From contig JAJRWI010000042.1 of NCBI GenBank assembly GCA_024276825.1, positions 1 to 64,000 on the forward strand: 64,000 nucleotides of DNA. Reading direction: 5' to 3'. Below are positions 58,711 to 62,575 of this stretch, piece after piece. The notes under the pieces were generated by a model, which saw nothing but the letters and a program-made list of their open reading frames with translations, did no database searches and was not told where the DNA came from. Position 1 is the first letter of the stretch; each line of letters begins with the position of its first letter. This DNA comes from an archaeon. Its GTDB lineage: Archaea; Asgardarchaeota; Thorarchaeia; Thorarchaeales; Thorarchaeaceae. The position numbers and the translations under genes are program-made.

Positions 58711-59727
58711 TCACTTGTGTTTGAGACCTGTCCACAATGCATCAGTTTCTGGTCGTGGCAGTAATGAAGATTGTGAGTCCTTGATGAGTAGTCGTCTTGC
58801 TGGGTCATTAATGGTCTTCCCAATCACAGTTGCATCAACGCCTGACCTTGTGATGGCATCAATCACCTCATCAACCTTGGAATGACTACAAGTCAGTAGC
58901 ATAGTCCCACTTGATATCAGACTATAGACATCTACTTCAAGAGCATCACATATCTTGCTAGTCACAGGATGAATAGGTATCATATCATGATTAATCTTGC
59001 AACCCACATTGCTTGCATCACAAATCTCATGAATGCCCCCAAATACTCCTCCCTCAGTAGGATCATGCATCGCAGTCACATAGCCTGTTTCAAAAGCGGC
59101 AATGCCTTCAGCAACGACACTGATTTGAAACCGCATCTGCTGGGCTTGATAGAGAACATCATCAGGCACCTTTCCATGAAGATAGGAACTACATTCGGTG
59201 GCCAAGATTGAAGTCCCCTCAATAGCAGCAGTTTTTGTCATGATTATTGCATCACCTGGCTGTGCTCCAGAAGAGGTGACATATTTGCCATGTTTGGTCA
59301 ACCCATGCATGATTCCAACAATTATCGGGTGTGAAACCGCCTCAGTTATCTCAGTATGGCCTCCCACTACAGCGATGCCAAGTGATCTTGCAGCCTCATC
59401 TATCTGCAACATTATTCTTTCAAGGTCTTTAGAGGTAGAGCCATCAGGGAGAAGTATTGATGCAAGAAACCATCGAGGGCGTACGCCAAAGGTAGCAATA
59501 TCATTGGCATTGATATGAACTGCAAGCCAGCCAACATCCTCAATTGACCCCGTGATTGGATCGGTGCTTGCAATGAGATCCTTATCGCCAATCCTGATGA
59601 CAGATGCATCCTGACCTATTTCTGGACCGATGATCACATCCGAGTCGCTAGCACCAAGGTTCTTGAAGACTATCCGTGTCAATATTTCTGGAGGGACTTT
59701 TCCTGGCTTCAATTGAACATGCTCCAT
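58711..59727 (-). CDS. AIR synthase-related / HypE-like protein
   Basis: GKVP, IGQDA, STDPITG, NANDIAT, GGHTE, MHDPTEGG, LISSG. Confidence 0.85.
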   Translation of the reverse strand: MEHVQLKPGKVPPEILTRIVFKNLGASDSDVIIGPEIGQDASVIRIGDKDLIASTDPITGSIEDVGWLAVHINANDIATFGVRPRWFLASILLPDGSTSKDLERIMLQIDEAARSLGIAVVGGHTEITEAVSHPIIVGIMHGLTKHGKYVTSSGAQPGDAIIMTKTAAIEGTSILATECSSYLHGKVPDDVLYQAQQMRFQISVVAEGIAAFETGYVTAMHDPTEGGVFGGIHEICDASNVGCKINHDMIPIHPVTSKICDALEVDVYSLISSGTMLLTCSHSKVDEVIDAITRSGVDATVIGKTINDPARRLLIKDSQSSLLPRPETDALWTGLKHK

Positions 59728-59879
59728 TGGTTTGGTGCGCATGGGTCCTGTTGCTGATGCATGAAAAGACAATTCATTGACACCCAGACTGGGCTCTCCT
59801 TGCTCACTATGACACCAGCCATTTGTTCCCATGCGCCGCTGGATTAAGAACAGTATCCGCATATAACGGATTTCATGAG

Positions 59880-61367
59880 TCACCTTGCAAGATATTCTTC
59901 TGCGGCCTTTAGGGTTGCAGGATCGATTTTTCTGACTGCTTGTGTCGAAGCGATAAACTCTGACAGGACCGAGTTCATCTTCATGACCTCATTGGCAAGA
60001 TAGGTTCTTCCACCGGCAATTGAAGCAATGAGATAGGAAGAGAATGACTCACGAAACTTTGGAACAGAGAGTATTGTTTCTACAACTGATGAGAAACCAT
60101 CCTTTTTCATTCTTAGAAATGTTGCAAGCTCTAGCGCATCATGGTAGGGCCTCTTGAGAAGCTTTACCCAATGAATCTGTCCAGTGTTTACATTTATCGT
60201 CACTAGTCTTATTCCATTCTTCTTAACAAGACGAGCAGCTTTGACAAGGTCTCGCACGGGTGTGAATTGAGCATGGCCTGGACCCACAGACTGAGCAAGA
60301 GGTATGTTTGGTGCAAAGTCGGAAACCATAATTAACAAGGGTTCAATATTCTTGTTTCTCATCCTCTCACGACGAACAGTTTCTATTGCCTTCATAATGC
60401 CCTCTGCAAGAGGTGTGAGACCAGAAATCCGCAGTCGAGCCAAACCCCTATAGAGCTTGTTCCAGTTAGTCGTTGGAGTCTGAACTTCAATCGCACCACT
60501 GTCCTTGAATGCAATAATCCCTACACGATCCTTTGTTCCACGGGTTTCGTGCTCGATGCGGCCAATTATCTTTCGGACCTCTTTCATATAGCCCTTCATT
60601 GACAAGCTGACATCTATTATCAGAATGATTGTGAGCGGTGTCTTTCCTGCAAACACTTTCTCACGTATATCGCTTGGCTTAATCTGAATCCTGCTACCGG
60701 GAACAAACTTTCCAGATCTTGCCACTGCCGCCATAACAGTTGCGTGAACATCAATACTTGAGGCCTCGCCAGTCGGTTGACGAGATCTGAATGGCCGCCC
60801 ATGTGTACTATCGGTTGATACCATTGAACCTAGGGATCTCGAACTTGTGCTTCTGTCGATCCAGCCGCCAGATGAAACTCGAGACTTGACCATTGCTCGA
60901 ACCCGCAGCTCATCTAAGTCGAATAGTTCCTCACCAGAATCGAGGTCAGGAAGCTTTACAAAGAATCCAGAGTCGATAGTCAGAGGATCACGAATGTCAG
61001 ACTTGGAGCCATAGAGCTTAGACTCGGGCTTGGACTCGTATCTTCGAGTAGCAGTGCCCCATTCGTCCCCAGGCTCTGGTTTAGCACGGCCAGAATCCAC
61101 AGTATCGATACCGGCAGCGGGTCCAGAAACCCGTTTCATCATTATGCGAAGCCAGTACTTGATGAGTTTATAGATAAATGGAATATATACTATCGTATTG
61201 ATTATTAGAATTGGCAATGGAGGCAAAATTCCTATAGAAGCACCAAGCAACACATTGAGGGGAGAGAAGAATATCCATGAGATATATGTAAATGCCACAA
61301 TCAACATGATTGAGATTATTGTCCCTTTTATGGGATTGCCACGGGGCTTTCTGACATTACTTACCTT
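59880..61367 (-). CDS. ChlD-like C-terminal part: transmembrane hairpin + vWA domain, probably reached by -1 frameshift from the upstream ATPase
   Basis: IDVHATV...IREKV linker, [22 protein letters not shown]. Frame open from 61373; first ATG at 61307 has no clear SD. Confidence 0.8.
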
Positions 61368-62575
61368 TTTTTTTTACCCTTCTGATCTCCCCACTGGGCA
61401 AAAGTGTCCTGTCGACCAAACGAACCACCACTATAACGAGTCCCACTGCCCGCCTCTTCAGATTCGTCATCCTTGTCTTTCGGAACCTCTGTGGGCGACT
61501 TTCGCTTGGTCTTCTTCTTCGAGAGTTCAGCAGCCTTCACAATAGCTGTCTCAATCTCACTGGGGGCAGGAGGTTCCAATAGTCCACCACGTCGTGTTCG
61601 ATGACTGAGAGTCAACTGGGCGGCCAGCTTCATGTCCTCCAGAGAGACCTCAGTCCTGCCCTCAAAAGCAGCCATTGTGATTGAGGTCTTGCTGATTATT
61701 ATATCGGGCCTTACGCCATCCACCTCAAGAGCATCACATGCCATAGCAATCGCATGCAACTTGTCTTCTGGAAGCATCACATTGGGCAATATCTCACGAG
61801 CTTTGACTATTCTGTTCCGAAGATGTTCCTGTTCTTCAGCCCATTTCTCCCTGAACTCTAGTGGGTTCTGTTCAAAGTTCAAGTTGCGTCTGACAAGTTC
61901 CATCCTATCCTCAATCGTGAGGTTTCTGCCAACAGCGACATGAAGTGGAAACCTATCCAGCAATTGTGGTCTGAGCTCCCCCTCTTCAGGATTCATTGTA
62001 CCAATCAGAATGAAGTCGGAGGGATGCGAAATTGAGATACCCTCACGTTCGATAACATTGAACTTTGTAGCAGCAGCATCCAGAAGGTCATCAACCAAGT
62101 GATCGGGTAAAAGGTTCACCTCATCCACATATAGAACATTCTGATGGGCCTCAGCCAGAATGCCAGGCTTTAAGGCTTGAATACCTTCTTGCAAGACACG
62201 TTCAATATCAATCGACCCAATGAGCCGGTCCTCAGTTGTCGACAGGGGAAGATTAACAACACGCATCTTCCTTCTGACAACTTTCAGTTCCTCACCCGCA
62301 TGCTTGCGTCTCTTGCAGTCCTCACACATCATCTCTTCATGATAGGGATTGCATCCAAACTTGCACCCCTCGACAACATCGACCTCAGGAAGCAGATCAG
62401 CAAGGGCACGCACTACGGTTGTCTTTCCAGTCCCTTTGGGTCCGGATATCAGCACGCCACCAATTCGGGGATTTATCCCATTCAGAATCAGGGCAAGTTT
62501 GAGCCGTTCAAGGTCAACCACAGCACTAAAGGGCAAGACAACACGTGACGCTTCAGTCAAGTTCATTCGTCCCAT
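61361..62575 (-). CDS. ChlI/BchI-like chelatase AAA+ ATPase
   Basis: [49 protein letters not shown]. Confidence 0.93.
61364..61375 (-). other. Candidate programmed -1 frameshift (slippery A10 run)
   Basis: GGT AAA AAA AAA AGG TAA. The -1 frame has TAA at 61376-61374 and is then open into the vWA ORF. Confidence 0.75.

Follow-up and report, generated by a model that had tools for sequence, protein, structure and literature searches.

The DNA analysed here is a 64,000-nucleotide stretch (the window) from a member of the Thorarchaeaceae, contig JAJRWI010000042.1 of assembly GCA_024276825.1, near the end of which (59880–62575) two overlapping open reading frames (ORFs) encode a ChlI/BchI-type AAA+ protein (ORF1) and a protein in which a hydrophobic hairpin precedes a von Willebrand factor A (vWA) domain (ORF2). 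We consider it quite probable that this locus specifies a ChlI/ChlD-type motor that is made, by recoding, in a soluble and a membrane-anchored form and that serves a membrane client other than a tetrapyrrole. Recoding of this kind is already known among chelatase genes; what is new is that a hairpin directly follows the slip site, that it is spread among uncultivated archaea, and that it occurs in a lineage without a large chelatase subunit or a tetrapyrrole pathway.

The junction between the two ORFs lies at an A-rich run, where the AAA+ and vWA frames overlap in a −1 relation. Specifically, ORF1 (61361–62575; this and all window features below are read from the reverse strand) ends in the 0 frame as GGT AAA AAA AAA AGG TAA, which holds a run of ten A's (A10, 61366–61375) followed 2 nt later by the TAA stop codon (61361–61363) that would close a short, soluble product of 404 residues. 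In the −1 frame, reading stays open between 61373 and 59880 and first meets an ATG, GTG or TTG at 61307, the Met where gene callers begin a 475-residue ‘VWA domain-containing protein’. Upstream of this annotated Met the −1 frame continues for 22 codons without a start codon (61308–61373), an extension that carries the conserved peptide R-N-P-R-G-D-P-I-K-G-T-I-C-A-I. One extra A, or a −1 slip, would join ORF1 and ORF2 into an AAA+–linker–vWA protein of about 898 residues.

The same junction recurs across related genomes. A scan of one genome per species yielded 70 related loci, nearly all from Thorarchaeota, and 58 sequences, the window included, were readable across the junction. The AAA+ ORF is one base ahead of ORF2 (the −1 layout) in 51 of the 58, with runs of A9 in 40, A10 in seven (among them the window), A11 in three and A7 in one; the 3′ end of the run falls 56–62 nt upstream of the Met in 50 of these 51, and a 0-frame stop follows 10–13 nt past the run in most of them. 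In the remaining −1-layout sequence (L005) the long A-run is interrupted (AAAAAGAAA), and directly before the stop stands an A7 run (CCA AAA AAA TAA; L005:3935–3960) that ends 47 nt upstream of the Met, with the −1 layout retained. A −1 slip there would lead into this same peptide; the site of slippage seems to have shifted with no loss of function. Three sequences (L003, L037 and L047) are in-frame fusions with one A more than similar sequences, and L047 was used as the representative fused protein. In three others (L024, L029 and L052) the AAA+ ORF stands in a +1 relation to ORF2, with A8 instead of A9 in L052 and a shortened AAA+ match in L029; these could be natural run-length variants, products of extra indels, or assembly noise.

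The 18 codons that separate the Met from the run vary among orthologues in the manner of ORF2-frame coding sequence, which points to translation of the extension. Entropy by codon phase is 0.64/0.37/1.46 in the ORF2 frame, differing codons are synonymous in 58% of cases in that frame vs 10% and 5% in the other two, and stops are present in 0 of 57 sequences vs 53 and 46 of 57. The encoded peptide is more conserved than the residues past the Met, and no start codon is conserved in this region, its I/V position being ATA or GTA. Codon choice in the overlap is strongly skewed: ATA makes up 26 of 30 Ile codons (background 21%), GTA or GTG 26 of 27 Val codons (background 42%), and AGR 51 of 55 Arg codons (background 42%), while the run stays pure A even though AAA accounts for only 41% of Lys codons in ORF2. 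From the biased codons and the pure-A run we infer that the end of the short product and the junction of the long product are both under selection, which, judged from these alignments, is the signature of programmed recoding rather than of error or decay. The slip site and both frames are thus kept by selection rather than chance, as seen in the period-3 pattern, the codon bias and L005, and in-frame fused homologues exist as well, both in the three fusions above and as 852–862-residue ORFs of Hermod-type Asgard archaea.

Immediately after the slip site, between the AAA+ module and the vWA domain with its metal ion-dependent adhesion site (MIDAS), the original prediction had placed a hydrophobic hairpin flanked by basic residues, and the sequence bears this out. 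Residues 17–67 of ORF2 (61173–61325) are a run of 51 residues with zero charged ones and with Kyte–Doolittle 19-residue peaks of 2.2 and 2.0, preceded by seven K/R in 17 residues and followed by five in 23–28 residues; no second segment of such hydrophobicity occurs in ORF1 or ORF2. AlphaFold2, given a 63-homologue alignment, models two helices at predicted local distance difference test (pLDDT) values of 83–92: helix 1, residues 14–42 (61248–61334), which holds the peak of 2.2, a conserved W and S-P-x-N, and helix 2, residues 53–80 (61134–61217), which holds a conserved D/N-T and has a K/R-rich exit. The hairpin is not unique to one assembly, as the survey of orthologues might have revealed, but is conserved in 57 aligned orthologous sequences, where the K/R-free stretch spans a median of 55 residues and the two flanks hold, on average, 3.6 and 4.6 K/R per 15 residues; it is also present in the in-frame fused homologues. 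On the strength of hydropathy, charge distribution, conservation and the AlphaFold model, on which the transmembrane (TM) assignment rests, the segment is probably a two-helix membrane hairpin with both globular parts cytoplasmic: the even number of helices and the basic flanks would place the AAA+ and vWA domains on the same side of the membrane, probably the cytoplasm, as had been predicted. Its polar and special residues (the Trp, the S-P-x-N that ends helix 1, the D/N-T in helix 2 and several Pro) are near-invariant across Thorarchaeota, and such conserved polar positions, unusual for a mere anchor, suggest that the hairpin is more than a passive one.

The globular parts on either side are those of a ChlI/ChlD-type motor. 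ORF1 carries the Pfam domains Mg_chelatase, AAA_5 and AAA_lid_2, and with Walker A (GPKGTGKT, 62420–62443), Walker B (62108–62134), sensor 1 (61979–62002) and Arg-finger (61949–61972) motifs all intact in its translation it is a full-length ChlI-type AAA+ protein, whose closest solved structure is Synechocystis ChlI (6l8d; E 1e-101 over residues 9–343). Its score against NCBIfam TIGR02030 is 398 bits, under the equivalog cut-off of 467, and we therefore treat it as a relative of ChlI and not as an equivalog. The best family match of ORF1 is TIGR02442 (‘putative cobaltochelatase’), over positions 2–350, and the ORF2 frame matches positions 409–616 of the same model; scores for the ChlD/BchD families (TIGR02031/TIGR02442) are 463 and 103 with a cut-off of 779; their domain order and MIDAS would be present in the recoded product, whose linker holds the TM hairpin and about 150 additional residues. 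Membership of ORF1 in the MoxR clade was ruled out, as its bpMoxR match (23 bits) is below the cut-off of 27 and the ChlI families score far higher. A paralogue of ORF1 was looked for in the same genome and none was found. Beyond the hairpin, the model of ORF2 has a low-confidence acidic, Gly/Pro-containing linker (residues 85–194; 60792–61121) that is predicted to be disordered (pLDDT mostly <50) and yet holds many invariant residues, then a confident vWA (integrin I-like) fold (60162–60629), and then a conserved C-terminal helical domain (residues 405–497, 59880–60161 with the stop codon) whose helices reach a pLDDT of about 90. The vWA domain matches Pfam VWA/VWA_2, has the BchD integrin I domain (2x31_A) as its closest solved relative, and in a Foldseek comparison of the ORF2 model with the PDB returned generic vWA domains only, the NorD vWA structure among them. 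The MIDAS residues are invariant in 63 sequences (DxSxS, 60600–60614; Thr motif, 60411–60425; Asp motif, 60306–60323).

The partners that a class I chelatase of the ChlIDH/CobNST type requires, namely the large subunit and the HemB/HemC substrate pathway, were both unfound. A profile search for CobN/ChlH (PF02514) gave no match in the host genome (98.3% complete, 1.8% contamination), the window included, whereas positive controls were found; ALAD (HemB), porphobilinogen deaminase (HemC) and CbiX were likewise without a match in the host genome, whereas control genomes matched. Among 24 genomes of the same family CobN and HemC were each found in none, and the ORF2 family is present in single copy in 22. 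As neither CobN/ChlH nor a tetrapyrrole trunk was detected, the motor most likely serves a different, membrane-located client, and the suggestion in the original prediction that it does not act on free tetrapyrroles gains from these searches, which make such chelation by the Thorarchaeota motor appear unlikely. CobN is present in four other Asgard families of our sample, with a ChlD-like ORF within a few kb in each genome checked, and the two CobN-adjacent ORFs examined (639 and 722 residues) have no hydrophobic segment. The 876–900-residue ORFs examined in other Asgard genomes do have membrane segments between Walker A and MIDAS, and none of them is on a contig with a CobN match; one genome (G031) has both the soluble and the TM type, on different contigs. 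As an observation apart, four Asgard genomes (G029, G030, G031 and G040) combine CobN and an adjacent soluble ChlD-like gene with no HemC match, a combination that could mean that a cobaltochelatase is used where no de novo tetrapyrrole trunk exists, or could reflect genome incompleteness.

The motor might nonetheless still be a tetrapyrrole (Co or Mg) chelatase whose macrocycles are salvaged or come from a partner and whose large subunit, possibly bound to the membrane, has gone unrecognised. The closeness of ORF1 to ChlI and its best match to a ‘putative cobaltochelatase’ family would fit such a role, and the Asgard genomes that have CobN without HemC indicate that salvage-type arrangements may exist. 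We regard this as improbable in view of the missing CobN/ChlH, HemB, HemC and CbiX in a nearly complete genome, the absence of CobN and HemC matches throughout the family sample, and the soluble type of the CobN-adjacent paralogues in other Asgard families, with G031 keeping its two types apart.

Several observations weigh against a recoded motor at this locus or against particular forms of it. RNAalifold predicted zero pairs for 26 junctions from the slip site to +100 nt, so that a conserved stimulatory hairpin or pseudoknot downstream of the slip site is unsupported, contrary to a classical stimulated frameshift. The annotated start of ORF2 has a conserved Met-Met (52 of 57 and 45 of 57 sequences), and independent initiation of a TM–vWA protein may therefore coexist with recoding. 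The length of the A-run differs by species (A7–A11) and a few sequences are in another frame, which would fit DNA-level variation or homopolymer assembly noise too. Outside the Thorarchaeota loci, lastly, the gene neighbourhood is not conserved, and this includes the AIR-synthase-related gene described below. Given the lack of downstream structure and the runs of 9–11, slippage of RNA polymerase or unstimulated slippage of the ribosome fits the junction better than classical stimulated frameshifting does.

The variation in run length, with its in-frame and other-frame variants, could also reflect DNA-level phase variation, in which replication slippage would toggle cells heritably between a split (soluble only) and a fused (anchored) state; poly-A tracts are slippery for DNA polymerases too (PMC3711429). 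This seems unlikely to us, because the −1 state dominates across deep divergence whereas toggling should give mixed states, and because a chelatase-type motor needs both subunit types simultaneously. Moreover, for an in-frame sequence with A10, slipping backwards or forwards leads to a stop within 2–3 codons, so that both genomic states would yield both proteins in differing ratios, and the short form would still be made, as fits mixing at the RNA level.

Decidedly unlikely is that these are two ordinary adjacent genes, with ORF2 translated from its conserved Met as a stand-alone TM–vWA protein that pairs with the ChlI-like ATPase, and with the A-run a Lys-rich tail without recoding. More than 100 database entries are indeed called at about 475 residues from that Met, Met-Met is conserved, and separate genes often encode AAA+ and vWA partners (NorQ/NorD and CobS/CobT). 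Set against this are the 18 codons upstream of the Met, which are more conserved than those after it, wobble at third positions in the ORF2 frame and lack both stops and a conserved start, the purity of the run against Lys codon usage, and the existence of in-frame fused homologues. A homopolymer miscount in sequencing or assembly, or a recent pseudogene, of what is truly an uninterrupted fusion would suit the error-prone nature of homopolymers, the single A by which the three in-frame sequences differ from similar ones and a further relative with an 893-residue open frame, but is very unlikely when the same −1 state was obtained in 51 of 58 species-level assemblies by many projects and assemblers independent of one another, biased codons maintain the downstream 0-frame stop, and both ORFs are otherwise intact at 50–75% identity.

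For the recoded motor we envisage the following scheme. Standard decoding would give a soluble 404-residue ChlI-type AAA+ ATPase ending just past the A10 run. In a fraction of expression events, an extra A in the mRNA (left by a slip of RNA polymerase) or a ribosome that slips back one base (−1) on A AAA AAA would lead into ORF2 and give a ChlD-type long form of about 898 residues, consisting of the same active AAA+ module, a basic junction, two TM helices, a disordered acidic linker, a MIDAS-bearing vWA domain and a helical C-terminus. By analogy to the double rings of ChlI/ChlD, the long form would assemble into a ring anchored in the membrane, to which a second ring, made of the short form, would be recruited, and the efficiency of slippage would set the stoichiometry of soluble to anchored subunits. 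This agrees with the original prediction, in which a soluble AAA+ and an anchored AAA+–TM–vWA product arise from one locus at a ratio set by recoding, and the coding pattern of the extension and the selection on the slip site are what argue for it. The client would be membrane-located, by analogy with AAA+/vWA metallochaperones such as NorQ/NorD or CoxD/CoxE, whose clients are in membranes or are metalloenzymes, and on this comparison a membrane-tethered AAA+/vWA remodeller or metallochaperone is most likely. A more specific proposal, which we advance tentatively as possible rather than probable, is that the ChlI/ChlD motor has a tetrapyrrole-independent second life in uncultivated archaea, where an anchored ChlD-like ring (12 helices if hexameric), together with a ChlI-like ATPase, would insert metal into a membrane-embedded client or remodel it, or would itself gate ion delivery, with Thorarchaeota tuning the soluble-to-anchored ratio by slippage on the A-run.

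The three-part architecture extends beyond Thorarchaeota. In a HMMER search of 1.84 billion cluster representatives, in which the Thorarchaeota family collapses to one cluster, the next match is an 862-residue single-ORF protein aligned from the hairpin on, and all later matches share the vWA domain only. A Hermod-type Asgard group has uninterrupted AAA+–hairpin–linker–vWA single ORFs of 852–862 residues, and about 20 of the 150 best matches are fused proteins of 735–1060 residues with at least two membrane segments at about residues 340–660, as judged by hydropathy, the named ones coming from Bathyarchaeota and Hodarchaeota. Other fused matches (600–800 residues) have a linker that is not hydrophobic, and with the highest linker hydropathy at ≤1.36, weak TM segments just under the threshold were ruled out for these soluble long forms. 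Like the predicted long form from the window, the uninterrupted proteins (e.g. RJS84095.1, UCH02519.1 and MFX0094582.1; from Bathyarchaeota, Hodarchaeota and Hermod-type Asgard archaea) have at least two predicted membrane segments between Walker A and MIDAS; unlike it, they are encoded in one frame, their hairpin is unalignable with the Thorarchaeota one except in the Hermod-type group, and they are uncharacterised, with generic annotation only.

Some of these uninterrupted genes directly follow a separate chlI-like gene. In two Bathyarchaeota-type contigs a chlI-like gene of 346–354 residues stands directly upstream of the TM-bearing fused gene (L071:6901–7965 and L073:5958–6998), with no CobN within 7–8 kb of either pair, an arrangement that, from gene content and order, is the same small-plus-anchored-medium logic in conventional encoding. 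Two further contigs carry a TM-bearing fused gene alone, and across these four archaeal contigs no conserved partner stands beside the TM-type gene beyond the chlI-like gene in two, nor does CobN. In a tree of the AAA+ domains of 46 proteins the window and the Thorarchaeota fusion group together with a support of 100, within a supported group of ten of which eight are TM-bearing; as the tree is poorly resolved, with TM and soluble forms interleaved, we make no claim for a single origin, or for any number of origins, of the hairpin. The Hermod-type in-frame genes have an A6 or A7 run of their own just past the AAA+ lid (L064:3830–3845 and L066:3830–3845; around residues 348–358), with a −1-frame stop 8–10 codons on. 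These genes could have the arrangement the other way round, with the short subunit made from a fused gene by slippage; the run could also be there by chance in a Lys-rich stretch. The original prediction also knew of no description of the architecture. This stands for a membrane hairpin placed after a slip site and for a setting that lacks tetrapyrrole synthesis, neither of which was found in the literature, but not for the architecture at large or as a peculiarity of this locus: uninterrupted AAA+–TM–vWA proteins are common in Bathyarchaeota and other Asgard lineages, where their database names are ‘VWA domain-containing protein’ or ‘Mg-chelatase subunit ChlD’.

Beyond these uninterrupted proteins, three known systems bear comparison with the locus. 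With ChlI/ChlD (BchI/BchD; TIGR02030, TIGR02031 and TIGR02442) it shares the whole-length alignment of ORF1 to ChlI structures, a vWA domain closest to the BchD integrin I domain, an intact MIDAS, and, in the predicted long form, the order AAA+, linker, vWA. The linker of canonical ChlD is soluble, acidic and Pro-rich. The locus departs from these proteins in NCBIfam scores under the curated cut-offs, in a linker that is about 150 residues longer and holds the hairpin, in a long form whose AAA+ part is identical to the active small subunit, and in the lack of a detected ChlH/CobN partner. The second system, frameshifted chlD (fs-chlD) genes, is reportedly covered in a further account by Antonov, published in Molecular Biology and Evolution in 2020. 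That chlD genes are recoded on poly-A runs is published, and to this extent the recoding that the original prediction put forward is not new: Antonov and colleagues (Nucleic Acids Research, 2013) grouped 23 Mg-chelatase genes that share a −1 frameshift at poly-A tracts of 7–11 A's, from Pseudomonas, Burkholderia, Delftia, Herpetosiphon, Methanocaldococcus and Methanococcus, which were annotated as two adjacent genes and of which examples from other species gave 10–63% frameshifting in E. coli reporters (PMC3711429), and Kuznetsov and colleagues also treated such genes in 2022 (PMC9227772). The locus resembles them in having, where the AAA+ half gives way to the vWA half, a poly-A run at which the frame shifts by −1, in a 0 frame that gives a small and a shifted frame that gives a medium subunit, in the annotation of the halves as two adjacent genes with fused homologues elsewhere, and in that archaeal examples are known. 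It differs in its clade (Asgard), in the two-helix hairpin after the slip site, and in its lineage without CobN and the tetrapyrrole trunk, whereas published fs-chlD genes are discussed as cobaltochelatase subunits working with CobN. No membrane segment is mentioned in the two accounts PMC3711429 and PMC9227772, and a full-text search of the literature on Thorarchaeota or Asgard chelatases and on ChlD with TM helices found nothing relevant. Third, the MoxR-class pairs NorQ/NorD, CoxD/CoxE and CbbQ/CbbO likewise direct an AAA+ ring and a MIDAS-bearing vWA adaptor at a client, which for NorQD is a membrane enzyme; CoxD is reportedly membrane-associated. As ORF1 falls in the ChlI clade, the likeness is in a possible mode of action and not in membership.

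Downstream of the motor genes, an AIR-synthase-related (PurM-superfamily; Pfam AIRS/AIRS_C) gene runs in the same direction and abuts the ORF2 stop (58711–59883). The order thrC (divergent), AAA+, TM–vWA, AIRS-like and SurE (convergent) holds in nearly all Thorarchaeota loci, these genomes being close kin, and the gene order around the AIRS-like gene is kept in 61 related loci. It scores under the HypE, ThiL and SelD cut-offs, and identity with ThiL or HypE was ruled out, since better-scoring copies of both lie elsewhere in the host genome (ThiL on contig C45, HypE on C52). The AIRS-like gene may be an operon or functional partner of the motor, and is offered as a lead only.

The locus adds a comparative case of probable frameshifting that spans a whole family of Asgard archaea and shows clear selection on its slip site. 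Proven archaeal programmed frameshifts are very few: a 2021 review lists a single −1 frameshift as demonstrated in archaea and refers to chelatase once (PMC8211752). Among archaeal ‘Mg-chelatase ChlI/ChlD’ annotations, a large set belongs to the membrane-anchored form, and because this form occurs without a large chelatase subunit in the genomes examined (and in Thorarchaeota without a tetrapyrrole pathway too), it should not be used as a marker of chlorophyll or B12 synthesis. In Bathyarchaeota, chlI/chlD genes in metagenome-assembled genomes without cobalamin genes have been taken as possible support for chlorophyll synthesis (PMC7110647), and published Mg-chelatase readings of Bathyarchaeota-type chlI-like and fused genes may need revisiting. 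If the motor is truly independent of tetrapyrroles, to read ‘Mg-chelatase’ genes in such archaea as hints of chlorophyll or cobalamin synthesis would have been a mistake. The presence of the ORF2 family in 22 of 24 related genomes suggests that it probably does something important there, and makes the family a defined system in which to look for further tasks that class I chelatase motors can perform.

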